A stretch of DNA of 25,499 nt from a virus (Duplodnaviria; Heunggongvirae; Uroviricota; Caudoviricetes): IMG/VR virus record IMGVR_UViG_2778261277_000016, positions 1 through 25,499 of that record. One strand, written 5' to 3'. The notes under the pieces were generated by a model. The model ran no database searches and was not told the origin of the DNA. It saw only the letters and a program-made list of their open reading frames with translations. The position numbers and the translations under genes were made by a program. Shown here one piece after another: positions 1,602-21,965 of the stretch (positions within the stretch are counted from its first letter, which is position 1; every line of letters begins with the position of its first letter).

Positions 1602-2711
1602 TTACTCTGTTTCTGCTATCCATTCCGGGATTTTGGCTTCAAGCTCAAGCTGCGTGGTAAAGCCACTGTTATCAATGGTGTGCTCGGCTTTTGCAATAAT
1701 CCAGTCCTGATTATCAATTTCGCTTTTAAATCCTGTTACCGTGCCATGCATTTCGGGGTAGAGTTCTGCGCGTCCACGTGCCAGTGTGATGGAGAACGCT
1801 GCGGCTCCGCGTTGTAGCTGCTGCCACTTTGCCGCCGCTGCGCGTCTTGCTGCCTGCTCGTTCTGATAAGTCTTGCGTAACACAAACACATTGCCTTCTG
1901 CGCCTTCCATATAATCACCTTCACGGCTGCTGCTTTTCTCCTTTTTGGGTTTTGGCGGTTTGCGGCGTTTCACGCTGACTTTTTTCTTTTTCCCGTAATT
2001 AAGATCAAGCCAGTAAGCGCGTACCCCCGTATACGCTTCGCGGTCAGCAATGCGGAACTGATGGCGATCGCCACTGCTGCGCGTGATGGCGAACGAGGGC
2101 AACGGCTGGCCCTGTGCGTTCACGCCACCGCCTGGCATGATGAATAACAGATTACCGCTTTTTACCGTGGTGATTGCGCCCAGCATTTCCGCCATGCGCG
2201 TAAGGAAGGACATGTCGCTTTCTTCGGTCTGGTCGGCGTGGTCGATTTCGATATCCATCAGCATTTCGCTGATTTGTGGTTTCAGACCATACCGATGAGC
2301 GATGGCGGATACCACACGCTCGAGGGTCACATCATGCCAGGACACCTCACGTTTAACGTTAAATTCATCCCGAAAATCTGCGCTTCTGGCTGAAACAGTC
2401 AGCCTGTCCGGCGGTCCTTCGTGAGCGATTTCATCAACAATGTAAGTGCCTTTTTCTGTCAGCGGTTCTCCTTTCCAGCCAATGAGAACCGTCAGGCGCG
2501 CGCCCCGTGGCGGTAGCTGCAACTGACCATCCGCATCATCCAGCGTGATGGTGAGCTGGTCCGCCTCAAATCCCCGGTTGTCGGTCAGTGACAGGCTCAT
2601 CAGGCGCTCTGCCACGCCTGACAGCGTTTTACCCTCCGCAAGAATATCAAAATCCGGCATTTTCACGGGGTCTGTGCCCTGACTGAGCAATTGCATGGTG
2701 GTATCGGTCAT
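1602..2711 (-). CDS. D: Phage tail protein D (P2 gpD family, late control gene D)
   Basis: 369-aa product; size, position before ogr and overall sequence fit P2 gpD. Start chosen at MTDTT because AGGGAGGG precedes it; the ORF track extends to 2732. Confidence 0.8.
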   Translation of the reverse strand: MTDTTMQLLSQGTDPVKMPDFDILAEGKTLSGVAERLMSLSLTDNRGFEADQLTITLDDADGQLQLPPRGARLTVLIGWKGEPLTEKGTYIVDEIAHEGPPDRLTVSARSADFRDEFNVKREVSWHDVTLERVVSAIAHRYGLKPQISEMLMDIEIDHADQTEESDMSFLTRMAEMLGAITTVKSGNLLFIMPGGGVNAQGQPLPSFAITRSSGDRHQFRIADREAYTGVRAYWLDLNYGKKKKVSVKRRKPPKPKKEKSSSREGDYMEGAEGNVFVLRKTYQNEQAARRAAAAKWQQLQRGAAAFSITLARGRAELYPEMHGTVTGFKSEIDNQDWIIAKAEHTIDNSGFTTQLELEAKIPEWIAETE

Positions 2712-2764
2712 CTTTCCCTCCCTGTGCGCCATGGTCGCATGTGCGTGCGGAGGGGGTTACTGCT

Positions 2765-2867: not shown

Positions 2868-4052
2868 ATGAGTGAAACTCGTTTTCATGGTGCCCGTGTC
2901 ACGGAAAGTACCGACCTGGTAACAGCGATTAATGATGTTGATTCCAGCGTTATCGGTATCGTGGCAACGGCGGATGATGCGGACGCGAAGCTGTTCCCGC
3001 TGAACAAGCCCACACTGCTGACCCGCGTCAATGACGTGCTGGGAAAATGCGGAACAACGGGGACGCTTTATCGTGCGCTTAAGGCCATCGCAGACCAGGT
3101 GAGCACAAAGGTGATCGTCGTTCGCGTGGCTGAACACAAAGAAGAAGACGGAAAGACGCAGGATCAACTGGTTATCGGTGGTTCTGAGGATGACGGCAGC
3201 TATACGGGGATGTATGCGCTGCTTGTTGCAGAGCAGGATGAAAGCATCGGATACCGTCCGCGTATTCTGGCCGCGCCGGAGCTGGACACGGAGGCGGTAA
3301 CAAAATCCCTGTGCGTGATTGCGGGTAAACTGCGCGCGTTTGTGTATGCCACATGTCATGGTTGTAACACGATGGCTGAGGCGATTGCCTACCGCCAGAA
3401 ATTCAACGAACGTGAGGTGATGCTCTTATGGCCTGACTTCATCGCCTACAACCCGAAAAGTGGCAAAAACGAAACGTTCCCCGCGCCTGCCTATGCGTGC
3501 GGCCTTCGTGCGTACATTGACCATGAGCAGGGCTGGCACAAATCATTGTCCAACGTTCCGGTTAAAAATGTGCTGGGGATGTCGAGGCATGTGTTCTGGT
3601 CGTTGCAGGCCGAAGACAGCGATGCCAACAGCCTCAACAACAAAGAAATCACGACCATTATTCGTCGCAACGGGTTCCGCTTCTGGGGCAACCGCACACC
3701 GGAAACGAACGCCTACATCTTTGAGGTGTATACCCGAACCGCACAGGTGCTGGCTGATTCAATTGCGGAAGCGCAGTTTGAAACCATCGACAGTCCACTG
3801 ACGCCTGCGAACGTGAAGGATGTTATCAGTGCCATCAGGGCAAAACTGGATTCACTGGTTACTGCCGGGAAACTGATTGGCGCGGAGTGCTGGTATGACG
3901 TGGTGGATAACAGCACCACGGATTTACGTCAGGGGCGTGTGCGTATTCGCTACAAATATACGCCCGTTCCGCCACTGGAAGACATGGAGCTTTACCAGAC
4001 GTTTACTGATGAATTCTTTGGTCCCGCATTTGCGGTGCTGGGAGGTGCCTGA
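2868..4052 (+). CDS. FI: Tail sheath protein (P2 gpFI family)
   Basis: 394 aa, close to P2 FI size as I recall it; AAGGGG RBS; followed by the tube gene with a TGATG overlap. Confidence 0.9.
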   Translation: MSETRFHGARVTESTDLVTAINDVDSSVIGIVATADDADAKLFPLNKPTLLTRVNDVLGKCGTTGTLYRALKAIADQVSTKVIVVRVAEHKEEDGKTQDQLVIGGSEDDGSYTGMYALLVAEQDESIGYRPRILAAPELDTEAVTKSLCVIAGKLRAFVYATCHGCNTMAEAIAYRQKFNEREVMLLWPDFIAYNPKSGKNETFPAPAYACGLRAYIDHEQGWHKSLSNVPVKNVLGMSRHVFWSLQAEDSDANSLNNKEITTIIRRNGFRFWGNRTPETNAYIFEVYTRTAQVLADSIAEAQFETIDSPLTPANVKDVISAIRAKLDSLVTAGKLIGAECWYDVVDNSTTDLRQGRVRIRYKYTPVPPLEDMELYQTFTDEFFGPAFAVLGGA

Positions 4053-4564
4053 TGGCTGTACCAAAACATCTTCGCTTTTTTACGCTGTTTGTGGATGGTG
4101 AAAACGAAGTGGGTAAGGTGACGTCCGTCACTCTGCCTAAGCTGACGCGCAAAACCGACAGCTACCGGGGTGGTGGCATGATGGGTGCGGTAAGTATTGA
4201 TCTCGGTCTGGACGACTCCGCGCTTGATGCGAGCTTTGTCATGGGGGGCGCAGTTCGTGAGCTGTTCCTTAAGTATGGCGGCACGATTGACGGCACGCTG
4301 CTGCGTTTTGCGGGTGAATACTACACCGATGCAGAAAGCGACCTGTATGAAGTCGAAATGCGCGGACGTGTGACGGAAATTGATATGGGGGAAGCCAAAC
4401 AGGGCGAAGCCACATCACACACTTACGCCATTAAAAACACCTACTACAAGCTGAGTGTTAACGATCGCCCGTTGTGGGAGATTGACCTGCTGAACTTCAT
4501 CTACCGGAAGGACGGCAAGGACATTGTGCCTGACCGTATCCGTTCCGCGCTTGGGCTTGGCTGA
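4052..4564 (+). CDS. FII: Tail tube protein (P2 gpFII family)
   Basis: 170 aa; GGAGGTG RBS; canonical position between sheath and the E/E' chaperone. Confidence 0.9.
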   Translation: MAVPKHLRFFTLFVDGENEVGKVTSVTLPKLTRKTDSYRGGGMMGAVSIDLGLDDSALDASFVMGGAVRELFLKYGGTIDGTLLRFAGEYYTDAESDLYEVEMRGRVTEIDMGEAKQGEATSHTYAIKNTYYKLSVNDRPLWEIDLLNFIYRKDGKDIVPDRIRSALGLG

Positions 4565-4618
4565 TAAGTAATATGCAGGCGGCGCAGTGCGTCGCCTCTG
4601 ACTGAAAGGAGTTTCCTG

Positions 4619-4984
4619 ATGAAAGAGACGAAAAACATCGATACCGAAAACACGGTAGTTACTGACACTGTGAAAGAAACCAGTGAGCGTGGCGTAAAAC
4701 TTACCCAACCAATTGAGCGAGGTGGCGAAAAAATCACGTATGTGGAGATCACCGGGGCTATTGAGCAGGCTGGATCTCTGCGAGATTTGTCGCTGTCTGA
4801 TGTGCTGAATCTGAAAGCGGAATCCATGTTTACGCTGCTGTCACGCGTGACATCACCGCGACTGGATGAAGTGACGATCAAAAAAATGGCATCCCGTGAC
4901 TTTATTCAGTTATGTGTGGTTGCCGTAAATTTTTTGAGCGGTGCGGACTCTGGCGGGAAGAACGAACAGGCGACGGAAGCCTGA
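4619..4984 (+). CDS. E: Tail assembly chaperone E (frame-0 product)
   Basis: 121-aa ORF with AAGGAG RBS directly upstream of the tape-measure gene; contains the slippery heptamer near its 3' end. Confidence 0.8.
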   Translation: MKETKNIDTENTVVTDTVKETSERGVKLTQPIERGGEKITYVEITGAIEQAGSLRDLSLSDVLNLKAESMFTLLSRVTSPRLDEVTIKKMASRDFIQLCVVAVNFLSGADSGGKNEQATEA

Positions 4985-5148
4985 TCACGGTTGTGTGCTT
5001 TGAGCACATAGAAGACTTTGTGGCGGATATTGCCGCCATTTTTAACTGGTCGCCCGCCGAAATCTTCATGATGACGCCCGGCGAAGTGGTTAGCTGGCGT
5101 GAGCGGGCGGCACTTCGCAGCGGGAATGCAGACAATGAAGACTCTTGA
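4619..5148 (+). CDS. E+E' fusion chaperone made by programmed -1 frameshift
   Basis: The -1 frame ORF (4912-5148) continues from the slippery T-TTT-TTG at 4930-4936. Frame arithmetic checked: E codons start at 4931 and 4934, the E' frame reads from 4930. This is the conserved P2 E/E' (lambda G/GT-like) arrangement. Confidence 0.6.
4930..4936 (+). other. Slippery heptamer TTTTTTG for the -1 ribosomal frameshift
   Basis: AAATTTTTTGAG at the point where the E frame and the -1 E' frame overlap. Confidence 0.6.
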
Positions 5149-7942
5149 TATCCGGGTCGCTTTCAGCGCCGTTGACAGGCTGACCCGGCCTGCCGAAAAC
5201 GCCCGCCGCCTGATGGGGCAGTTTGGTGACTCCATCCAGCGAACGCAGGGGGCGATCAAAAATCTCGAGCGTCAGGCGCGATCATTTGAGCGCGCCCGTG
5301 ACGCTGTCAGTAAAGCGGATGCGGGCATCGTGAAAGCACGACGCCAGCTTAACGCCCTTAATCAGTTACAACGCACGGGTACAGTGCTCAGCGAAAAACA
5401 ACAAAAGCTGATGCAGCAGTTAAGCACCCGGCTTGAACGCCTGAATGAATCGCGCACACGGGAAATTCAGAAAATGCGGGAGCTTGGCGGAGAGCTGAAA
5501 CGCCACGGCATTTCCCTGACAGGCAGCGATAACACCATCCAGCAGGCCATCAGACGCACCGAACAGTACAACAACCAGCTTGAACGCGAACGGCAGGCGC
5601 TTGCGCGTGTAACACGGGCGCGTGAGCGGTATTCGCGCGCGCAGGAAACAGCGGGAAAACTGAAAACAGGTGGTGCGCTGGCAATTGGTGCGGCAGCGGC
5701 GGGCGGCTATGCTGCCGGGCGTTTTTTGCAGCCTGCGATCGGGTTCGGCAAAGAGATGTCCCGCGTTCAGGCACTGACGCGAATCGACCAGAACAGCCCG
5801 CAGTTTAAGGCGCTGCGTGAGCAGGCGTTAAAACTTGGCTCTGAAACGCAGTTCACCGCAGGCGATGCCGCCAGTGGACAGGCATTTCTTGCAATGGCTG
5901 GCTTTACACCACAGGCCATTCAGGCTGCGCTCCCTGGCGTACTGAGCATGGCAACGGCTGGCGGTATGGACCTCGGTGAGACGGCGGATATTGGCTCAAA
6001 TATTCTGACGCAGTTCGGTCTTTCTGCTGACCAGATGGACCGGGTCGGCGACACACTCACCGCAGCGTTTACCCGTACCAACACTGACCTTCGCGCACTG
6101 GGTGAAACCATGAAATATGCAGGTCCGGTGGCGGGTAAGCTGGGAATATCGCTGGAGCAGGCCGCAGCGATGGCGGGCGTGCTGGCGAATATGGGTATCA
6201 GGGGGAGTGATGCTGGTACGGCAATGCGTGCCAGCCTGGCTCGTCTGGCATCACCGCCAAAGGCGGCAGCAGAGGCGCTGAAAGAGCTTGGCGTGTCTGT
6301 CTCGGATGCCGGGGGCAAAATGCGCCCGATGGAGGATGTGCTGGCTGACCTTTATAAAGCTACCCGCAAATACGGGGAAGTTGACCGGGTATCGTTCTTT
6401 AAGGACATTGCCGGAGAAGAGGCTTTCACATCATTTATGGCCCTCGTTGATGCGGCAGGTGACGGCTCCTTACCCAAACTGAGAAAAGAACTTGAAGGCG
6501 CGCGCGGTGAGGCTGAACGCACGGCAAAGGTTATGGCCAACAACCTTGACGGCGATCTGAAATCACTCAGCAGTGCATGGGAAGGGTTGCGCATCCGCAT
6601 TGCAGATCTGATTGACGGTCCGCTGCGTTCTGTCACGCAGTGGCTCACGCGTGTGGTATCAAAGGTGACGGCGCTGGCGCAGGCCCATCCCGCACTGACG
6701 CGCCAGCTACTGATTGCAGGCGGTGCACTGCTGGCAATGACTGCAACGGTTGGCTCGTTGTCGCTGGCTATTGGTGTGCTTGCTGGCCCGCTGGCAAAAC
6801 TGCGTCTTGGTTTTTCCCTCCTGACCGGATCAATGAATGCTGTCAGGGTTCTGCCAGCACTATGGGGAATGGTGACGGGTTCCGTTTCTTTACTGGGAGG
6901 CGCTATCGGGGCGTTGTTCAGTCCGGTTGGTCTTATCGTGGCTGCGCTTGCCGGAGCTGCCGTTCTTATCTGGAAATACTGGGATCCCATCAGGGCATTT
7001 TTTGCCTGGGTGTTCAGCGGGATTATGGAAAGGCTGACCCCGTTGCGCGAAACCTTTGAACGGTTTGGTCCTGTTTTTGACGCAATCGGGAGTGGGATCA
7101 GCCAGGTGTTTAACTGGTTTAAATCGCTGCTGTCACCGATGGAGTCCAGCAAGGAAACTCTGGATAAATGTACCAGTGCTGGCGAGATATTCGGTAACGT
7201 TCTTGGCGGTGCGTTACAACTTGTTCTGACACCTGCAAAAATGTTGCTGGATACGCTGGCGTGGATACTTGAAAAGCTTGGTGTGCTTCCGGATGAAGCG
7301 GAAAGGGCGCGCAAGAAAATCGAAGACGCACAGCGTGCGGCCATTCTTCAGGACAAGGTTGCCTTGCTTCAGGGGGACCTGGCGAAAATCAATCCGCCGA
7401 AGCCTGTGGAAAATGGCAATGGCACCGGAGGTGATAACCCCAAAGACAATAAACCGCTCACAGACAGCAATACCGGTACGCTGCGCAGACTCAGCAAAAT
7501 TGCTGATAACACAGGTAAGCTGGTTGAGGAGACGAAAAAACGCATTGGCCCCGGCGATATTGTCTTTAAAAACCTGCCCCGAGCACTTGCTGTTCGTGGG
7601 GAGTGGCAGGAGCGGAAGATTGCGCAGGTCAGTAAGCCTGCCCCCGCAATTAATATCACACCCGTGGTCCCGGCTCCGCTGCCTCCGGCGCTGGTCCCTG
7701 TTGTTGCGGCCAGCTCCCGCCCGGTGGCGGAGGCTATACGATCTCCAGTGGCATCAGTTCCTGTAACTTCCCGTAACCGGGAGCCTGTTGCCTCCGGATT
7801 TGGTGGTGAAATTCATGTTCATCTGCATAACGTTGTTACGCAGAATCCCCGCGAACTGGCGAAACTGGTCGGTGAAATGGTCAGGGCAGAAATGGAACGG
7901 CGCGCCCGTGCCGGGCGTGGCAGTTTTTACGATAAAGATTGA
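5126..7942 (+). CDS. T: Tail tape measure protein (P2 gpT family)
   Basis: Very long ORF (about 940 aa) with an N-terminal coiled-coil-like region, central Gly/Ala-rich hydrophobic segments and a Pro/Val-rich C-terminus, directly after E/E'. Start is uncertain: GTG 5099, ATG 5126 or ATG 5135. Confidence 0.85.
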   Translation: MQTMKTLDIRVAFSAVDRLTRPAENARRLMGQFGDSIQRTQGAIKNLERQARSFERARDAVSKADAGIVKARRQLNALNQLQRTGTVLSEKQQKLMQQLSTRLERLNESRTREIQKMRELGGELKRHGISLTGSDNTIQQAIRRTEQYNNQLERERQALARVTRARERYSRAQETAGKLKTGGALAIGAAAAGGYAAGRFLQPAIGFGKEMSRVQALTRIDQNSPQFKALREQALKLGSETQFTAGDAASGQAFLAMAGFTPQAIQAALPGVLSMATAGGMDLGETADIGSNILTQFGLSADQMDRVGDTLTAAFTRTNTDLRALGETMKYAGPVAGKLGISLEQAAAMAGVLANMGIRGSDAGTAMRASLARLASPPKAAAEALKELGVSVSDAGGKMRPMEDVLADLYKATRKYGEVDRVSFFKDIAGEEAFTSFMALVDAAGDGSLPKLRKELEGARGEAERTAKVMANNLDGDLKSLSSAWEGLRIRIADLIDGPLRSVTQWLTRVVSKVTALAQAHPALTRQLLIAGGALLAMTATVGSLSLAIGVLAGPLAKLRLGFSLLTGSMNAVRVLPALWGMVTGSVSLLGGAIGALFSPVGLIVAALAGAAVLIWKYWDPIRAFFAWVFSGIMERLTPLRETFERFGPVFDAIGSGISQVFNWFKSLLSPMESSKETLDKCTSAGEIFGNVLGGALQLVLTPAKMLLDTLAWILEKLGVLPDEAERARKKIEDAQRAAILQDKVALLQGDLAKINPPKPVENGNGTGGDNPKDNKPLTDSNTGTLRRLSKIADNTGKLVEETKKRIGPGDIVFKNLPRALAVRGEWQERKIAQVSKPAPAINITPVVPAPLPPALVPVVAASSRPVAEAIRSPVASVPVTSRNREPVASGFGGEIHVHLHNVVTQNPRELAKLVGEMVRAEMERRARAGRGSFYDKD

Positions 7943-7948
7943 GGAGTC

Positions 7949-8443
7949 ATGGCCATGATGATGATCTACGGCATGTTTGTTTTTGAGCTGCGCACGCTGC
8001 CGCATCAGCAGTTACAGCAAAACAAAAGCTGGCGGCATGTGAAAAATGAACGCGTTAACCGTTCAGCAAGCTGGCAGTATATCGGTGCAGGTGATGATCG
8101 CATCGTTCTTTCTGGTGTGCTTTATCCTGAAATTACAGGTGGCGAAGTGTCGCTGTCGCTGCTGACCACGCAGGCGTATACAGGACGACCCTGGCCTTTG
8201 ATTGATGGTGTCGGGCAGATTTACGGCATGTATGTCCTGACCGGAACGAATACGACCCGCTCCGAGTTTGATCGCTACGGTAAGGCGAAAAAGATAGAAT
8301 TTTCACTGACTCTTGAACGCTGTGATGAGGATTTGCGGGAGCGCCTGCAATCCTCATCGTTCAGTGATATGCTGTCCGGCTTCAAAGATAAGGTCACATC
8401 ATCCCTTAACAGCGCGGCCAGCTCCGTTAACGGGCTGTTTTGA
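7949..8443 (+). CDS. U: Tail protein U (P2 gpU family)
   Basis: 164 aa; motifs such as MYVLTGTN...KIEFSLTLERCDE resemble P2 gpU from memory. True start may be the ATG at 7955, which has better spacing from the GAGGAG RBS. Confidence 0.85.
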   Translation: MAMMMIYGMFVFELRTLPHQQLQQNKSWRHVKNERVNRSASWQYIGAGDDRIVLSGVLYPEITGGEVSLSLLTTQAYTGRPWPLIDGVGQIYGMYVLTGTNTTRSEFDRYGKAKKIEFSLTLERCDEDLRERLQSSSFSDMLSGFKDKVTSSLNSAASSVNGLF

Positions 8444-8450
8444 TTAACGC

Positions 8451-8488
8451 AAAACCGCTAATGGTCAGATTAGCGGTTTTCATTTTCC
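8451..8488. terminator. Bidirectional hairpin terminator between U and the invertase fragment
   Basis: Perfect 12-bp inverted repeat AAAACCGCTAAT(8451-8462)/ATTAGCGGTTTT(8469-8480) with a 6-nt loop, followed by CATTTTCC on +. Sits between convergent genes. Confidence 0.5.
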
Positions 8489-8775
8489 TGAGTCTGCCTG
8501 GTTGTTTCTTCAGCCTGTATATCGCCTACAGGGTGATAACGATAAATCGTCGATATGCCGATGTCGTAAATGATCGCCAGTTGTTTCCTGTCATGACCGT
8601 TTTTAATCAGCCTCGCTATTTGTTCGTGTTGTTCTTTTGTCAACTTCGGGCGACGTCCGCCAATGCGTCCTTGTGCGCGTGCTGCTGCCAGCCCGGCCAG
8701 TGTACGCTCTACAATTAATTCATGTTCCATTTCGGCTAAAGCTCCCATGACGTGAAAAAAGAAACGCCCCATGGG
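8470..8775 (-). pseudogene. Truncated serine-invertase paralog (C-terminal half only)
   Basis: Translation PMGRFFFHVMGALAEMEHELIVERTLAGLAAARAQGRIGGRRPKLTKEQHEQIARLIKNGHDRKQLAIIYDIGISTIYRYHP matches the C-terminal half of the adjacent invertase with a handful of substitutions. DNA similarity stops near 8775; the catalytic N-terminus is absent and there is no convincing RBS. Confidence 0.6.
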
Positions 8776-8860
8776 TGTTGATTGATGCGCCGCGCGATAA
8801 ACGTACCTATTTCCGTGAGATAAATTACATCGCCGCGGCATTTCAATATCAGAAAAAGAA

Positions 8861-9433
8861 TTACAAATCAGCTTGAGTTTGAAGTTCCTCTACAGGGTGA
8901 TAACGATAAATCGTCGATATACCGATATCGTAAATAATTGCCAACTGTTTCCTGCTATAGCCATTTTTGATCAGCCTTGCTATTTGTTCATGTTGCTCTT
9001 TTGTCAGTTTCGGACGACGTCCACCAATACGCCCCTGTGCACGTGCTGCTTCAAGTCCGGCCAGTGTTCGTTCAACTATTAATTCACGCTCCATTTCCGC
9101 TAAAGCCCCCATGACGTGAAAAAAGAAACGTCCCATGGGTGTTGACGTATCAATGCTGTCTGTAAGACTACGGAAGTTAACCCCTTTTTCCCGCAGTTCC
9201 TCAATAAGAGTGATGAGGTGTTTCATGCTTCTGCCCAGCCTGTCCAGCTTCCAGACAACGAGCGTATCTCCTTCTGATAACGTTCTGAGCAGCTTTTTCA
9301 ATCCCGGTCGGGCTGACTTTGTTCCGCTGATTTTATCCTCAAAAATCAGTTCACATCCTGCGCAGTTCAGTGCGTTTCGTTGTAAATCTGTATTCTGGTC
9401 ATTTGTTGACACACGAATGTAGCCAATTTGCAT
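8861..9433 (-). CDS. Serine DNA invertase, Gin/Hin/Pin/Cin/Min family
   Basis: Starts MQIGYIRVSTNDQNTDLQRNAL, the canonical N-terminus of this family with the catalytic Ser in RVST. Also has TLVVWKLDRLGRS, SLTDSIDTS and a C-terminal HTH (GISTIYRYHP). AAAGAGGA RBS 8 nt before the ATG. The ORF track's upstream extension to 9628 is rejected. Confidence 0.9.
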   Translation of the reverse strand: MQIGYIRVSTNDQNTDLQRNALNCAGCELIFEDKISGTKSARPGLKKLLRTLSEGDTLVVWKLDRLGRSMKHLITLIEELREKGVNFRSLTDSIDTSTPMGRFFFHVMGALAEMERELIVERTLAGLEAARAQGRIGGRRPKLTKEQHEQIARLIKNGYSRKQLAIIYDIGISTIYRYHPVEELQTQADL

Positions 9434-9487
9434 GAAAAATATCCTCTTTGTTTTGTTAAAAATACATAGCTGGTATAGGTGGGAGTT

Positions 9488-9513
9488 AAGACGAAAACGT
9501 TGGTTTGGGGGAA
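9488..9513. repeat. Candidate 26-bp invertase crossover site (cassette 1)
   Basis: AAGACGAAAACG-TT-GGTTTGGGGGAA. Right half-site is identical in all five sites; overall shape resembles hixL TTCTTGAAAACC-AA-GGTTTTTGATAA from memory. Confidence 0.5.
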
Positions 9514-9936
9514 GGCTCAGCGCTGCCCGTTGGTGTGCCCGTTCCGTGGCCCTCAGCCACACCGCCAGCAGGGTGGCTGAAATGTAACGGCGCAGCATTT
9601 TCTTCTGAAATGTACCCCAATCTGGCAAAGGCTTATCCTACAAATAAATTACCGGATTTACGGGGTGAGTTTATTCGCGGCTGGGATGACGGGCGGGGAA
9701 TTGATTCAGGACGCACTCTACTTTCGTTACAGGGCGATATGTTTAAATCGCACAGTCATTACTTCCGTGAAATATGGGGTGCAAATGGACCAGATGGAAC
9801 TGGTGGACCGTACATTGTCGGGGCGGATACAAACGGTTCGAGAATAAATTTAGGCACTATAGAAACCAGTGCACCTGGTGGTTCAGAAACCCGTCCCCGT
9901 AACATTGCATTTAATTACATCGTAAGAGCGGCATAG
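9505..9936 (+). CDS. Silent tail-fibre C-terminal cassette 1 (tail-collar-like domain, HxH-containing); promoterless gene segment
   Basis: No ATG or RBS (the ORF track begins at TTG inside the crossover site). Conserved N-part GEGSALPVGVPVPWPSATPP.GWLKCNGAAFSSEMYP.LAKAYPTNKLPDLRGEFIRGWDDGRGID, variable middle, conserved end RPRNIAFNYIVRAA; the same ends occur in the expressed H gene. Confidence 0.75.
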   Translation: MGEGSALPVGVPVPWPSATPPAGWLKCNGAAFSSEMYPNLAKAYPTNKLPDLRGEFIRGWDDGRGIDSGRTLLSLQGDMFKSHSHYFREIWGANGPDGTGGPYIVGADTNGSRINLGTIETSAPGGSETRPRNIAFNYIVRAA

Positions 9937-9955
9937 AAACGTTGGTTTGGGGGAA
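9930..9955. repeat. Candidate crossover site (cassette 2)
   Basis: GGCATAGAAACG-TT-GGTTTGGGGGAA; the left half-site contains the stop codon of cassette 1. Confidence 0.5.
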
Positions 9956-10414
9956 GGCTCGGCGCTGCCCGTTGGTGTGCCTGTTCCGTGGCCCTCAGCC
10001 ACACCACCAACGGGCTGGCTGAAATGTAACGGTGCAGCATTTTCTTCTGAAATGTATCCCAAACTGGCAAAAGCTTACCCCACCAATAAATTACCGGATT
10101 TACGGGGTGAATTTATTCGTGGCTGGGATGATGGGCGGGGAATTGATAATAGACGCAACCTACTGTCTGCACAGTCTGACACTATTCAGAATATAGTTGG
10201 CACTTTTGGACGAACTCAGCTTTTTAAAGATGCTTTAAATTCAGGGCCATTTAGTCAAACTGACTCTATATTATCAGTAGGCTTGCAACCAACTGAGAAT
10301 ATTGAAGGATATGGCGCCTCTGTATGGACATTCGACGCCTCTCGCTCAGTTCGCACAGCATCTGAAACACGTCCTCGTAACATTGCGTTTAATTACATCG
10401 TAAGGGCGGCATAG
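9947..10414 (+). CDS. Silent tail-fibre C-terminal cassette 2 (no HxH, AT-rich variable core)
   Basis: Same conserved ends as cassette 1; variable core NRRNLLSAQSDTIQNIVGTF... is unrelated to cassettes 1 and 4; in a different reading frame from cassette 1. Confidence 0.75.
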   Translation: MGEGSALPVGVPVPWPSATPPTGWLKCNGAAFSSEMYPKLAKAYPTNKLPDLRGEFIRGWDDGRGIDNRRNLLSAQSDTIQNIVGTFGRTQLFKDALNSGPFSQTDSILSVGLQPTENIEGYGASVWTFDASRSVRTASETRPRNIAFNYIVRAA

Positions 10415-10433
10415 AAACGTTGGTTTGGGGGAA
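10408..10433. repeat. Candidate crossover site (cassette 3)
   Basis: GGCATAGAAACG-TT-GGTTTGGGGGAA, identical to the cassette 2 and 4 sites. Confidence 0.5.
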
Positions 10434-10886
10434 GGCTCTGCACTACCTGTTGGTGTGCCTGTTCCATGGCCGTCAGCCACACCGCCAACAGGGTGGCTGA
10501 AATGTAACGGTGCAGCATTTTCTTCTGAAATGTACCCCAATCTGGCAAAGGCTTACCCCACGAATAAATTACCGGATTTACGGGGCGAATTTATCCGTGG
10601 CTGGGATGACGGACGAGGTATTGATGCAGGACGAGAGATACTTTCATTTCAGGAAGGCACTATCGTCTCCGGTTTTGATGATAATGATACTGGGGATATC
10701 AGTTCACTTAGCTCAACACAATACGGATTTGGTGACACTCTAACCTCTAATCAATGGGGGGCCATAAATGGCAAAAAGTGGATATTTGATGCATCCAGTA
10801 AAGGTGCACAAAAATATGACTGGCGGGCTTATGTATCAGCTCGTCCGCGTAATATTGCATTTAATTACATCGTAAGAGCGGCATAG
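10425..10886 (+). CDS. Silent tail-fibre C-terminal cassette 3 (no HxH)
   Basis: Same conserved ends; unique variable core AGREILSFQEGTIVSGFDDNDTGD... Confidence 0.75.
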   Translation: MGEGSALPVGVPVPWPSATPPTGWLKCNGAAFSSEMYPNLAKAYPTNKLPDLRGEFIRGWDDGRGIDAGREILSFQEGTIVSGFDDNDTGDISSLSSTQYGFGDTLTSNQWGAINGKKWIFDASSKGAQKYDWRAYVSARPRNIAFNYIVRAA

Positions 10887-10905
10887 AAACGTTGGTTTGG
10901 GGGAA
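10880..10905. repeat. Candidate crossover site (cassette 4)
   Basis: GGCATAGAAACG-TT-GGTTTGGGGGAA. Confidence 0.5.
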
Positions 10906-11400
10906 GGCTCTGCACTACCCGTTGGTGTGCCTGTTCCGTGGCCCTCAGCCACACCGCCAACAGGGTGGCTGAAATGTAACGGCGCAGCATTTTCTTCTGA
11001 AATGTACCCCAAACTGGCAAAGGCTTACCCCACCAATAAATTACCGGATTTACGGGGTGAGTTTATTCGTGGCTGGGATGATGGGCGGGGAATTGATTCA
11101 GGGCGTTCCTTGCTTAATGCACAATCACATTCGGTTATAGATCATATTCATTATATGGAGTTATGGACTGGTGAAGGGCTTGCCGCAAACAACACCCGTG
11201 CAGGAACAAACCCTGGTATACTGGCTACATACGGTGATGGCGGGATTGTTAAAACAGATGAGTCAGGTGTAAAAGTTCCATCTTCACTACGTGCTATTGG
11301 CACTCGTGGTGTTTATAGATTAGGTGCCAACGGAGGGAATACAGGAACGGAAAACCGCCCCCGTAATATTGCGTTTAACTATATTGTAAGGGCTACTTAA
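10897..11400 (+). CDS. Silent tail-fibre C-terminal cassette 4 (HxH-containing), coupled to the downstream tail-fibre assembly gene
   Basis: Same conserved ends; variable core contains HIHYMELW; its stop overlaps the next gene's start as TAATG (11398-11402). Confidence 0.75.
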   Translation: MGEGSALPVGVPVPWPSATPPTGWLKCNGAAFSSEMYPKLAKAYPTNKLPDLRGEFIRGWDDGRGIDSGRSLLNAQSHSVIDHIHYMELWTGEGLAANNTRAGTNPGILATYGDGGIVKTDESGVKVPSSLRAIGTRGVYRLGANGGNTGTENRPRNIAFNYIVRAT

Positions 11401-12017
11401 TGAATAATGCTGCTGCAGTACTTGATCAGAATGGTATCGCTATAACTGCAGGCGATATTACCGTTTATAACTACGATGCTGAAAACCGTGAATATCTCTC
11501 TGCCACTGTTGAGTATCTCGCTTATGGTGTTGGAATTCCGGCTCACTCATGCATTGACGCGCCACCAGAAAAACGCCCCGGCTTCGCTGTCTGTCGTGAT
11601 ACCGACCAGAACATCTGGAAATATGTTCCAGACCACAGAGGCGAAACGGTTTACAGCACAGAGAATGGTAACGCTGTGCAAATCACACAACCGGGAGATT
11701 ACCCTCCTGATACGACGGTGAAACAGCCAGCTACTATCTATGATGTCTGGGATGGTGAGATTTGGGTGACAGATACGAGACGACAGCACGCAGCAGAACT
11801 GGAAGCTGCCGGAGCGCATCGTCAGCAACTTGAGGAACAGGCAATGGCATCTGTTGAGCTTATTAATCTCAAACTACGAGCCGGACGCCGATTGACGCCC
11901 CAGGAGACGGAAAAACTAAACGCCGTGCTTGATTTCATAGATACGCTTAATGCGACTGACATCAGCACTGCACCGGATATCAACTGGCCGGAAATGCCTC
12001 TGGCAGCAGCCAGTTGA
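11400..12017 (+). CDS. Tail fibre assembly protein (Tfa family; P2 gpG / Mu U analogue)
   Basis: 205 aa; translationally coupled to cassette 4 with an AAGGG RBS; family assignment is from memory of Tfa-like proteins (short conserved N-terminus, Asp/Pro-rich regions, coiled-coil segment) and from its position beside the fibre cassettes. Confidence 0.75.
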   Translation: MNNAAAVLDQNGIAITAGDITVYNYDAENREYLSATVEYLAYGVGIPAHSCIDAPPEKRPGFAVCRDTDQNIWKYVPDHRGETVYSTENGNAVQITQPGDYPPDTTVKQPATIYDVWDGEIWVTDTRRQHAAELEAAGAHRQQLEEQAMASVELINLKLRAGRRLTPQETEKLNAVLDFIDTLNATDISTAPDINWPEMPLAAAS

Positions 12018-12023
12018 GTATAA

Positions 12024-13541
12024 TTAAGCCGCCCTCACGATATAGTTAAATGCGATATTGCGGGGGCGAGTTTCACTACCACCAGTGTTACCAATACTCC
12101 CTCGTGAATGAAGTGTCGGTGATGGGATCAGACTCCCGCCTGTACTTGTGGCATCAAGTCCCCGTCCTTGTGTATATGTTTTTTTGAAAATTGTGGCCAA
12201 CTCCCATTCATCCTTTGTGTCATACCCATCGTTAGCTACAACAATATGGCGGTGTTTTTCCAGCATCCCAGTTTGAAAGCTTAATAAAGCACGTCCTGCA
12301 TCAATCCCTCGCCCGTCATCCCAGCCACGAATAAACTCGCCCCGTAAATCCGGTAATTTATTGGTGGGGTAAGCCTTTGCCAGTTTGGGGTACATTTCAG
12401 AAGAAAATGCTGCACCGTTACATTTCAGCCACCCTGTTGGCGGTGTGGCTGAGGGCCACGGAACAGGCACACCAACGGGTAGTGCAGAGCCTTCCCCCAA
12501 ACCAAGGTATGCGAGAAGACCAGCTACATCCTTTCCACTCAAATTGGTAAGCGTATTGTCCAGCGGTTGTTTACCTGCCAGCGCACTAAGCATTGTCGTG
12601 GCAAAGTTCGGATCATTCCCCAGTGCCGCAGCCAGTTCGTTCAGCGTGTTCAGTGCATCAGGTGACGAATCTACAAGTGCGGCAATCGCGGCCATAACGA
12701 AAGCCGTGCTTGCGATCTGGGTACTATTAGTCCCCTGTGGCGCTGTTGGTGTTGTTGGCATTCCGGTCAGTGCCGGGCTGTTTAATGGTGCTTTCTTGCT
12801 CGTTTCATCCATTACCGCCTTAACAGCTTTTGGTGTCGCTGCCAGCGTTTCAGACGTGCTGTTCGTGGCGCTACTGAGCTGAACAATCCCTTTTTGTGTT
12901 GTGGTGGCGTTCTGGGCGGTATATTTCCCGTCAGCCAGGTCATATGCAGCCTTAACTGCTTTCGGTGTTGCGGCCAGTGTTTCTGATTCACTGTTAATTG
13001 CACTGCTTAACTGAGTAAAACCTTTTGCGGTCAGCGAGGCGTCCGGGTGACGTCGTGACTGTTCGTGCTCTGAGATTTTATCATCCACATATTTGCGGGT
13101 TGCCAGAACCACCGACGGGTCGATTTTCAGCGTGATGGCTTCGGTATTCGTGACAACCAGAATCATGCGGATAGTCTGGGTGCGTCCACTGCCTTCCTGC
13201 AACTGCGGTTTGTACGTTTCCGGGCAGTTTGCCACCGCAATGAGTACACCTTCATCATCATAAAGACCAATCTCACGGATCCAGAATCCTCCCTCGTTTT
13301 CAGGGATGATTTGCTCCGCAATAATCTGGCTCTGATTGTTAGGGTCAACACTCAGAAGATTCAGCGGTGCAATGCGTTTCTGGTTAATCAGTTTTGTTTG
13401 TGCAGGGTCTGGTGTTGGTAACACACCATTTGCATCACCAACGGCCATTTGCGTCAGATTCAGCTTACTGCCGAGCATCGTCGCGTTAGCCAGTCGTGCT
13501 GCGCCCTGATTAGTCAGAATGGCGTAGTATTTCACTGTCAT
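12024..13541 (-). CDS. H: Tail fibre protein H, currently expressed variant (P2 gpH-like N-terminus fused to a tail-collar-type C-terminal cassette)
   Basis: N-terminal portion through EHEQSRRHPDASLTAKGFTQLSSA...ETLAATPKAVKA matches P2 gpH from memory. The C-terminal 155 aa begin ...LGLGEGSALPVGVPVPWPSATPPTGWLKCNG and end RPRNIAFNYIVRAA, the same frame as the silent cassettes on the opposite strand. Confidence 0.9.
   Translation of the reverse strand: MTVKYYAILTNQGAARLANATMLGSKLNLTQMAVGDANGVLPTPDPAQTKLINQKRIAPLNLLSVDPNNQSQIIAEQIIPENEGGFWIREIGLYDDEGVLIAVANCPETYKPQLQEGSGRTQTIRMILVVTNTEAITLKIDPSVVLATRKYVDDKISEHEQSRRHPDASLTAKGFTQLSSAINSESETLAATPKAVKAAYDLADGKYTAQNATTTQKGIVQLSSATNSTSETLAATPKAVKAVMDETSKKAPLNSPALTGMPTTPTAPQGTNSTQIASTAFVMAAIAALVDSSPDALNTLNELAAALGNDPNFATTMLSALAGKQPLDNTLTNLSGKDVAGLLAYLGLGEGSALPVGVPVPWPSATPPTGWLKCNGAAFSSEMYPKLAKAYPTNKLPDLRGEFIRGWDDGRGIDAGRALLSFQTGMLEKHRHIVVANDGYDTKDEWELATIFKKTYTQGRGLDATSTGGSLIPSPTLHSRGSIGNTGGSETRPRNIAFNYIVRAA
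12492..12517. repeat. Candidate crossover site inside H (constant/variable junction), inverted relative to the cassette sites
   Basis: + strand reads TTCCCCCAAACC-AA-GGTATGCGAGAA, i.e. on the - strand TTCTCGCATACC-TT-GGTTTGGGGGAA. Homology with the cassettes begins exactly at the TT core, inside the CTT codon of ...AYLGLGEGS. Confidence 0.55.
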
Positions 13542-14146
13542 GCGTTTACTCTCAGATTATCAATTAAATGAATGGCCGGGGCAGGGAAATAATCCCCTTC
13601 GACAATAATGGACTCCGGGGTGTAGGGATAAACCGTCAGGGCATCGCCGTGATAGCATCCCGTACCAACGAAAATCTTTCCGTTCACACTCAGGCTGATC
13701 GCCAGCCCCGTCAGATGGCGACTTACTGGTTTTGCATCCGCAATAAGGCGCTCAAGTTCCTGATACATTTCATCGGTGATGCCCTGATCAAGTACTCCGA
13801 CAACAATGCGAAATGTTCCTGGCTCCTCGTTGAGTTGCCACCACTCCTTTACTTCAATCAGGTAGCCGAGAGGCTCCACGGCTCTTCGCAGTGCGCTGAT
13901 GGTCCCTTTGTGTCGGTGTATCAGCCATGCATCACGAATTACCTGTCGCTTTGTCTCTTCCGGCCAGTTGCGATCCCAGCGGTCAACGGAAAACGCCCAG
14001 GCGAAATAAGGCAGCAGATGCACCGGGCAGGTGTCCGGCGACCACAGCGTGTTGAGGTCTACCGGGATGTCTGTAATGCGCGTTCCGACAGCTTCGGCAT
14101 AACGCATGAAATTGCTGGCTGATGGCGGTAACAGTGAATTACTCAT
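13538..14146 (-). CDS. I: Baseplate/tail protein I (P2 gpI family)
   Basis: Position between J and H; start set at MSNSLLPP (ATG 14144-14146), which overlaps the J stop; the ORF track extends to 14200. Confidence 0.8.
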   Translation of the reverse strand: MSNSLLPPSASNFMRYAEAVGTRITDIPVDLNTLWSPDTCPVHLLPYFAWAFSVDRWDRNWPEETKRQVIRDAWLIHRHKGTISALRRAVEPLGYLIEVKEWWQLNEEPGTFRIVVGVLDQGITDEMYQELERLIADAKPVSRHLTGLAISLSVNGKIFVGTGCYHGDALTVYPYTPESIIVEGDYFPAPAIHLIDNLRVNA

Positions 14147-15035
14147 TACGCCCACCTTCGCTGATGGTGAATGACTCACAGCGCGCCGCCTGTATGTCAC
14201 TGATGGCCATATTCTGTGTGGGTTCGATTATCTCCACGCGTTGCACGCCGTGTACATGAAGTGCGGCAGCAATGGCGGACAACGCCACGTCCTGACCGAT
14301 AAGCCCCTGTTCAGCCAGCCACTTCCTGAATGACGATTCCGCCGCGGCCAGAATAGGTTCGGATTCCGGACCGGGGTAAAAGTACAGTTTTGCATTCAGC
14401 CGCCATGTCACGATGCTGGCGCTCTGTACGGTCAGGCGGTCGGCCACCGGGCGGGTATCCTCTGCATTCAGAACGGCGCGAACGGTATTAAGCAACGCCT
14501 CCGTTGCTGTGCCGTCGCCCTCAGTGGACAGTATGGAAACCGTCACGTTGGCCGGAGACGGGCTGATGGCTCGCGCGTCGCGTACCAGACCGCTGGCGCT
14601 GCGTGCAAAATACTCGTATGCGCCTGACGGGCCAGCAACACTCAGACCGTCATACGCCCGTTGCGCCCGCAGTCTCAGCGAGGTGTCGCTTTCCATCACC
14701 GCGTCGGTGGTATCCGTTGCCGGAGTGATAACCAGGCGCTTTGTGTTCATATTACCCGCGAGGTTGTCCAGGTCTGTCCCGGCGCTGTGGCTTAACATGC
14801 AGGCGCGTGCACCCTCATTGACCCGCTGGCGTAACAGCATTTCACGAAACGCTGTTGTCTGGGCGATAACGTTCAGAGGTTCCGATTCCAGCTCCAGCGC
14901 AGCGGAGACGGCTTCACGCTGTTCGGCGGGATAAGCCGCAATCATCATGGCCTTTGTGTCAGCCAGAATTGCCTCAAAGTCAGGCTCCGCGATGATGGCG
15001 GGTTCCGGTAACTGGGAAAGGTCAACGGCGGGCAT
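14139..15035 (-). CDS. J: Baseplate assembly protein J (P2 gpJ family)
   Basis: 298 aa; canonical W-J-I-H order. Confidence 0.85.
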   Translation of the reverse strand: MPAVDLSQLPEPAIIAEPDFEAILADTKAMMIAAYPAEQREAVSAALELESEPLNVIAQTTAFREMLLRQRVNEGARACMLSHSAGTDLDNLAGNMNTKRLVITPATDTTDAVMESDTSLRLRAQRAYDGLSVAGPSGAYEYFARSASGLVRDARAISPSPANVTVSILSTEGDGTATEALLNTVRAVLNAEDTRPVADRLTVQSASIVTWRLNAKLYFYPGPESEPILAAAESSFRKWLAEQGLIGQDVALSAIAAALHVHGVQRVEIIEPTQNMAISDIQAARCESFTISEGGRNE

Positions 15036-21937: not shown

Positions 21938-21965
21938 TTTTGTTGTAAGAAAACGGCCAGAACAG
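21938..21965 (+). promoter_or_regulatory. Candidate late-promoter activator box TTTTGTTGT-N12-AGAACAG in the O/P divergent region
   Basis: TTTTGTTGT aagaaaacggcc AGAACAG, about 74 bp before the P ATG and 81 bp before the O ATG; same box as upstream of FI. Confidence 0.3.

Follow-up and report, generated by a model that had tools for sequence, protein, structure and literature searches.

How can a single chaperone gene serve a tail-fibre module in both of the orientations that the module gives it? The question is raised by a 25,499-nucleotide stretch of a P2-family prophage (IMG/VR record IMGVR_UViG_2778261277_000016, positions 1 to 25,499; hereafter the window), in which tfa, the sole tail-fibre assembly gene of an invertible module, lies antisense to the tail-fibre gene H. 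Invertible tail-fibre modules are the classic device by which phages hedge their bets on host range, and they are being copied for engineered phages and tailocins. In the textbook cases, Mu and P1, each tip has a chaperone gene of its own; the module considered here, which is very common in Escherichia coli, has a single one for as many as six tips, a gene that is antisense in half of the module's states. We did not find the question addressed in the literature that we reached. Antisense tfa is, as we describe below, the expected state of a known system and not an anomaly. Our reading, to which we give about even chances, is that the window holds one ordinary, functional isomer of a Min-type multiple-inversion module whose Tfa is generic, is needed and is made from transcription other than that of H.

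The machinery of the module is that of a Din-family inversion system (Table 1). The complete invertase combines a Resolvase-type catalytic domain with a C-terminal helix-turn-helix, and its residues 1-185 match the Gin structures 4m6f/3uj3 (E 4.5e-91); together these features place it among the Din-family serine DNA invertases (Gin/Cin/Hin/Pin/Min). H is related to each of the four + strand cassettes by inverted repeats of 209-229 nt that are 91-96% complementary, and a crossover-type sequence, TTGGTTTGGGGGAAGG, is common to all five repeat copies. The five crossover copies follow the Din-type pattern AAAC(G/C)-TT-GGTTTGGGGGAA with a 2-bp core, and the copy in H points the opposite way to the four in the cassettes, so that short inverted crossover sites flank the invertible DNA; the extent of 26 bp given for these sites is by analogy with gix/hix/cix only. 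With five sites and five in-frame tips, the module exceeds the two sites of a simple switch, as Min-type and shufflon-like systems do, and by every feature that we tested the locus is a Din-family multiple-inversion system of the kind of p15B Min and the E2348/69 shufflon. The Gin-family invertase would recombine the H crossover site with the inverted sites at the 5' ends of the Collar-domain cassettes, all four of which are promoterless, and would so fuse one of the five tips to the constant part of H.

Within this module, silent cassette 4 (tip167) ends in a TAA (11398-11400) whose last base opens the tfa ATG at 11400 (TAATG, a 1-nt overlap), and the tfa stop codon (TGA, 12015-12017) is parted from that of H (12024-12026) by six bases (12018-12023). 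It is silent tip167, and not the expressed and convergent tip158, that has a co-oriented tfa directly downstream. Between the H stop codon and tfa we predict no hairpin of the terminator type, so H transcription should run antisense across tfa. Because tfa lies between the H site and every cassette site, any first inversion puts it in the orientation of H. A preliminary description of the locus had held that tfa converges on the H stop codon across a 6-bp gap, that it lies inside the segment flipped at any of the four cassette sites and that it becomes co-oriented with H after any first inversion, all of which the coordinates and site positions confirm; its further point, that H transcription runs antisense into tfa in the captured configuration, is supported by the lack of a predicted terminator. 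It had also spoken of translational coupling between tfa and cassette 4. The TAATG overlap is indeed present, but coupling is only formal here, for the silent cassette has neither an ATG nor a ribosome-binding site, its frame opening eight codons before the shared GEGSALP motif.

We enumerated all states that can be reached by inversion between oppositely oriented sites. There are 48 such isomers, every one with an in-frame, full-length fibre, and tfa is antisense in 24 of them and sense in 24. This follows from the position of tfa: a single gene in the central segment, between the tip that overlaps its start and the tip that converges on it, would be antisense to H in one isomer out of two, and in every isomer that expresses tip158, the present one included. 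Indeed, tip158 was expressed in the enumeration only with tfa antisense and tip167 only with tfa sense, the three peripheral tips being divided 6:6 (antisense:sense) each. Among 21 related invertible loci with a readable state (the window counted; the states of L016 and L018 were read separately), tfa was antisense in 11 and sense in 10. Each of the peripheral tip types was found expressed in both tfa states, tip143 being the expressed tip in L002, L007 and L008, tip155 in L009 and L011, and tip153 in L003 and L010, and the Mu-tail-like locus L004 is in exactly the state of the window, its fibre fused to tip158 and its tfa directly convergent. What the preliminary description had taken for a trait of the captured configuration is instead inherent to a widespread single-tfa inversion module. 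As a separate observation, tip167, the sole tip always co-transcribed with tfa, was the expressed tip in none of the 21 loci; about one in eight would be expected in this five-tip module, and the shortfall is not significant (P ~0.06).

Inversion is active in this prophage lineage, as judged by comparison between strains and not within one culture. The arms of L010 are 100% identical to those of the window (4853 + 4106 nt), and its invertible part is rearranged in cassette order and lies two inversions away from the window state. The sister isolates L023 and L024 carry different isomers, and the 11:10 split among loci is evidence of the same kind. By sequencing and PCR, Goldberg et al. (2014, PMC4272514) found four coexisting variants of a shufflon with three repeats in a P2-like prophage of enteropathogenic E. 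coli E2348/69, and the inversion sizes that they reported (~1.8 and ~2.2 kb) fit L001, the E2348/69 homologue of the region (93.5% identity).

The arrangement is both common and conserved. In the public assembly collection, 1041 blocks list the identical 205-residue Tfa, and a 5.2-kb query spanning the fibre region (window 8400-13600) matches 3618 of 5426 complete E. coli genomes, at a median of two places per matching genome and at up to 24. Every related invertible module that we examined has a single tfa and the same recurring layout, in which one tip has a stop codon that overlaps the tfa start, a linkage conserved in all modules, and another converges on tfa. At all 22 invertible loci with a readable junction the convergent tip and tfa are 6 bp apart, and these loci span P88-like and two kinds of Mu-tail-like backbones. 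In the P1-like IncY phage-plasmid L028, too, several Collar cassettes go with only one tfa, on which a tip converges, the gap being 5 bp by annotation. The convergent tip at 6 bp is tip158 in every invertible locus that carries it except L028, in which tip158 is peripheral. The simplest version of the module, in predicted phage 503046, consists of two tips, one tfa and an invertase.

The Min multiple-inversion system of plasmid p15B, which reportedly has six sites and 240 isomers, is like the module of the window in its Din-family invertase, its more than two crossover sites and its single constant 5' fibre part with alternative 3' tips; it differs in its P1-type backbone and in its number of sites and isomers, the window being P2-family (P88-like) with five sites and 48 isomers. 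Relatives of Min on P1-like IncY plasmids have modules that are 86-90% identical in DNA to that of the window. The E2348/69 shufflon belongs to the same prophage genus, with the same gene order and 93.5% identity over shared parts, and in the reference assembly it too has a single tfa antisense to H, with tip158 convergent on it; it differs in having three sites and four variants, and its tfa-coupled tip is tip152 and not tip167. The paper on that shufflon does not address the orientation of tfa (PMC4272514). The invertible segments of Mu (G), P1 (C), P88 and pro483 share a Gin-type invertase, the swapping of 3' fibre ends and the placing of tfa within the invertible DNA. They differ in that each has two tips with a co-oriented tfa apiece, so that a tfa is always downstream of the expressed tip, whereas the five tips of the window share a single tfa. 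The Stf protein of HK97 ends in the same Collar tip (...GEGSALPVGVPVPW...RPRNIAFNYIVRAV), and a tfa overlaps its gene; such Stf-Tfa pairs in HK97 and lambdoid phages are, however, fixed: they cannot invert, they have a single tip and their tfa is always co-transcribed. Finally, a Xenorhabdus tailocin/prophage array (L030, 1-12462) is rich in alternative tip cassettes, which belong to several fold types and include Collar tips with Caudo_TAP_N-type Tfas; it differs in that every cassette has its own adjacent tfa. It is the E. coli module that lost this tfa-per-cassette redundancy.

Is the antisense state used? The sequence of tip158, which only antisense isomers can express, bears on this. It is intact in 14 of 14 loci of its class. 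In its variable part, alleles of the window type and of the E2348/69 type differ by 15-16 synonymous and 2-3 nonsynonymous changes, although there are ~3.3 times more nonsynonymous than synonymous sites; with pS (the proportion of synonymous sites that differ) at 0.31-0.33 and pN (the nonsynonymous counterpart) at 0.012-0.018, pN/pS is 0.04-0.06. More divergent homologues (67-87% identity) are intact as well. Thus, tip158 is under strong purifying selection.

A second part of our reading is that Tfa is generic and is still needed in the antisense isomers. Tfa belongs to the family of lambda Tfa, Mu U and P2 G by its C-terminal Caudo_TAP domain (PF02413, residues 80-200), Caudo_TAP_N is on record too for a protein identical to it, and it is 60% identical to HK97 Tfa; a sequence search of the Protein Data Bank with Tfa gave no match, and a scan of genome contigs for Tfa relatives confirmed none. 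The N-terminal part of tip158 matches the collar domain of T4 gp37 (2xgf, E 1.2e-17), and T4 gp37 depends on chaperones. In three of the five tips the variable insert opens with an HxH motif (HSHY in tip143, HIHY in tip167 and HRH in tip158), reminiscent of the metal-binding HxH motifs in T4 fibre tips, and the motif is absent from tip155 and tip153. The N-terminal domain of Tfa is conserved among the window, E2348/69, phage 503046 and HK97, whose partner Collar tips have unrelated variable inserts; the P88 Tfas, which go with non-Collar tips, have an unrelated one. The fibre-binding domain of Mu Tfa is the N-terminal domain (as summarised in PMC9608196). These comparisons suggest that Tfa is one generic chaperone that recognises the Collar scaffold shared by all tips. 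For a generic chaperone of a shared scaffold one gene would suffice, but its orientation becomes a real problem. To know if the chaperone is generic, if it can be dispensed with or if it is expressed separately would also tell how portable tip cassettes are and whether a single Tfa suffices for swapped Collar-type tips in engineered fibres.

The best surviving alternative, which we hold to be unlikely though still a serious contender, is that tip158, and perhaps every tip except the tfa-coupled one, folds and trimerises without Tfa, so that tfa serves tip167 only and its orientation here is irrelevant. That tip167 alone overlaps tfa, a linkage kept in all modules, fits this idea, as do the purifying selection on tip158 and our failure to find a tfa promoter, and the Collar domain is known in proteins that are not linked to a Caudo_TAP gene, such as T4 gp12, which requires gp57A and not a Tfa. 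Gene linkage elsewhere argues otherwise. Collar tips with an overlapping, co-oriented tfa are found in HK97, in the non-invertible prophages L019 and L029 (one of them in Yersinia) and in the Xenorhabdus array, whose Collar cassettes each keep their own tfa, and in the lambdoid prophage L019 the tip in question, at the end of Stf, is of the tip158 type (72% identity in the variable part). Moreover, position in the module does not track a property of the tip: tip157 is tfa-coupled in L020 and L021, convergent in L015 (503046) and peripheral in L005 and L006, and in the P1-like L028 tip158 is peripheral and another tip convergent. The conservation of the Tfa N-terminal domain despite unrelated inserts likewise points to recognition of the shared scaffold. 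The suggestion of the preliminary description that the current tip does not need the chaperone is therefore disfavoured, and we infer that Tfa is still needed when its gene is antisense.

From where, then, is tfa transcribed? In the reading that we prefer, Tfa in the antisense isomers would be made from transcription outside the H operon, the likely source being a weak promoter of the module, inside the cassettes or at the boundary on the invertase side, and translation would start at the Shine-Dalgarno sequence of tfa itself. A Shine-Dalgarno-like AAGGG at 11388-11392, 7 nt before the ATG, makes independent translation possible. A promoter of its own for tfa, as also proposed in the preliminary description, survives by elimination; the sequence gives it no positive support. 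A sigma-70 consensus scan found nothing near tfa. The only extended -10 match on the + strand of the window (TGGTATACT, at 11214) lies inside an insert that is specific to tip167 and is not common to other tfa-coupled tips, and an Rfam search gave no family match. The hexamer TATATT at the ends of tfa-proximal tips (TACATC in peripheral ones) was considered as a promoter and rejected: it tracks the ancestry of the repeat units, and a start there would lose the Shine-Dalgarno sequence.

The invertase-side boundary deserves separate mention. A perfect TGT-N12-ACA dyad (9449-9466) stands in the 71 bp that separate the start of the invertase gene from crossover site 1. Adjoining it is TGGTATAGG, which is conserved in diverged modules, the module of 503046 having TGAGATAAT at a similar position; this element could be the promoter/operator of the invertase on the other strand or an outward promoter. 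Elsewhere in the window, the sequence TTTTGTTGT-N12-AGAAC occurs upstream both of FI (2764-2790) and of the terminase gene P (21938-21963), followed in each case by a hexamer that resembles a -10 element, at 52 nt from the TGT; the two regions are probable Ogr-type late promoters of this phage, PF and PP, whose TGT-N12-ACA dyad is imperfect.

Several observations weigh against our reading. A weight-matrix scan of the + strand from 9.4 to 11.4 kb, with a heuristic sigma-70 matrix, gave matches at background level only. The best of them, CTGGCA-17-TAAATT, has a score of 8.6, at about the 90th percentile of the best match per 500 nt; its position is within conserved coding sequence, and the L015 module lacks it. 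An Ogr-type late promoter at 9449-9466, the only perfect dyad in intergenic DNA, was rejected, since TGGTTT stands at the -10 position and the spacing of PF and PP is lacking. A + strand tfa transcript would collide with late transcription of the H operon, no terminator separating the two. Purifying selection on tip158 means that the tip is used and says nothing of the presence of Tfa during its use, and the dependence of the tips on Tfa is deduced from gene linkage in other phages.

A more specific proposal, which we put forward tentatively and hold to be less likely than not, is an undescribed supply of Tfa that is independent of orientation: either a promoter at the boundary or in the conserved 5' part of the cassettes that fires against the H transcript, or a late burst of invertase. 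Such a burst would scramble sister copies of the genome, about half of which would then supply Tfa in trans. If true, the promoter or the burst would explain how one chaperone gene serves both orientations in four unrelated phage backbones.

Supply in trans can also be considered by itself, as Tfa provided by homologues in co-resident prophages or by sister copies flipped during lytic replication, an alternative that we hold to be distinctly unlikely. Tfa proteins of different phages have been reported to be interchangeable (lambda Tfa for T4 gp38), and the many E. coli genomes matched by the fibre-region query, at a median of two places each, would offer donors. We observe, besides, that in every locus the invertase gene follows the fibre gene in the same orientation, with no predicted terminator between, and that late H-operon transcription could enter the invertase gene; read-through of this kind could raise inversion rates. 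On the other hand, the late genes of other prophages are silent unless co-induced, and in Mu and P1 inversion is slow relative to one lytic cycle. Of the possibilities that remain, we rank a weak module-internal promoter above supply in trans and supply in trans above independence from Tfa, with modest confidence.

Less probable still is that the tfa-antisense isomers are a phase-variable off state, in which the fusion of H to tip158 misfolds without Tfa and the particles are fibre-defective, as the preliminary description had allowed. The antisense position of tfa, which lacks both a recognisable promoter and a terminator that would separate it from H, is compatible with such a state, and Collar tips are normally linked to a co-oriented tfa. 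Yet a tip that can be expressed only with tfa antisense is intact in all 14 loci and preserved by purifying selection, at pS ~0.3, which makes an off state unlikely. Four phage backbones, as well as the two-tip 503046 module, have kept the convergent arrangement of tip and tfa, and to have half of the isomers dead would be a heavy cost to a device that diversifies host range. Nor is the locus an ON/OFF switch of the promoter-inversion kind (hin, fimS), for inversion swaps coding 3' ends and each isomer encodes a full-length fibre. The antisense isomers are thus probably not an off state.

Read-through into tfa from the convergent tail operon FI-FII-E-T-U, which is also on the + strand and whose convergence with the H operon is conserved in P88-like phages, is very improbable and was rejected, given the strong bidirectional hairpin terminator predicted after U, the intervening DNA (~1 kb of invertase sequence in antisense, and 1.9 kb taken up by silent cassettes), and the presence of the module in backbones of the Mu-tail-like and P1-like types, which have no tail operon directed towards it.

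Table 1. Positions in the window of the inversion module and of genes around it
Feature	Position	Strand	Remarks
Gene D	1602..2732	-	
FI-FII-E-T-U tail operon	2868..8443	+	
Sheath gene FI	2868..4052	+	
Tape-measure gene T	5099..7942	+	
Gene U	7949..8443	+	
Predicted bidirectional hairpin terminator	8451..8480		Between U and the invertase side; 12-bp stem, flanked by an A-run and a T-run
Truncated invertase	8470..8841	-	3' remnant of the resident P88-lineage invertase; Pfam: only the C-terminal end of the Resolvase domain, and HTH_7
Gin/Din-family serine DNA invertase	8861..9433	-	190 aa; Pfam Resolvase (E 1.7e-51) and HTH_7 (E 1.3e-13)
Crossover site 1	9488..9513	+	Fixed boundary beside the invertase; AAACG-TT-GGTTTGGGGGAA, aligned with the other four sites
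Silent tip cassette 1 (tip143)	9505..9936	+	Collar domain
Crossover site 2	9930..9955	+	
Silent tip cassette 2 (tip155)	9947..10414	+	
Crossover site 3	10408..10433	+	
Silent tip cassette 3 (tip153)	10425..10886	+	
Crossover site 4	10880..10905	+	
Silent tip cassette 4 (tip167)	10897..11400	+	Pfam Collar (E 4.7e-15); stop codon overlaps tfa start
tfa	11400..12017	+	Sole tail-fibre assembly gene of the module; 205 aa; Pfam Caudo_TAP (E 8.7e-26)
Tail-fibre gene H, entire	12024..13541	-	
Expressed variable tip of H (tip158)	12024..12500	-	Pfam Collar within H
Crossover site in H	~12492..12517	-	TTCCCCCAAACC-AA-GGTATGCGAGAA; joins constant and variable parts; H end of all four inverted repeats
Constant part of H (P2-type tail-fibre gene)	12518..13541	-	Pfam Phage_tail_fib (E 1.8e-62) and Phage_fiber_2
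Gene I	13538..14200	-	

The surroundings of the module are those of a P88-like (Xuanwuvirus) prophage of E. coli. The gene order is D on the - strand, FI-FII-E-T-U on the + strand, with FII as the tube gene, the invertase on the - strand, the invertible DNA and then H-I-J-W-V... on the - strand, where the head, lysis and baseplate genes lead into I and H; P88 and the E2348/69 prophage have the same order, and more than 1000 complete E. coli genomes match the two arms of the window at 98-99% identity. We considered and rejected the idea that the FI-U block is the product of an aberrant invertase-mediated inversion relative to P2, for its position is the normal one in P88 and E2348/69. D is parted from U by the opposite-strand tail operon and diverges from FI across 135 bp, which raises the question of how D is transcribed. 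The hairpin after U has a folding energy of -15.6 kcal/mol (z -2.9 against shuffled sequences); it sits between the convergent U and the invertase remnant and probably terminates transcription of the F operon from one side and of the H operon from the other.

The DNA next to this hairpin tells of the origin of the module. Positions 8444-8782 are 98.8% identical to the invertase 3' end of the P88-like prophages L001, L016 and L017, the next 79 nt (8782-8860) are 100% identical to the DNA beside the invertase of the Mu-tail-like prophage L004, and the complete invertase of the window is 100% identical to that in the Mu-tail-like prophage module L002. Since resident P88-lineage sequence here adjoins sequence of Mu-tail-like type, the whole inversion module of the window is, on these identities, an import whose junction is marked by 8444-8860.

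Finally, we note three related loci in which parts of the module appear broken or missing. In a P88-like prophage of E. coli 23CRST024 (L018, 2394-3448), tfa, which is antisense to H, and its coupled tip are annotated as frameshifted pseudogenes. In the P1-like phage vB_EcoM-673R5 (L012, 5000-8700), several cassettes and the invertase of a related module are broken into short frames, through decay or sequencing errors. A Mu-like prophage (L025, 4160-6598) has the fibre gene, tip158, a convergent tfa and one further tip, with no invertase gene called before the neighbouring flhA, and may be a module frozen in the tfa-antisense state.

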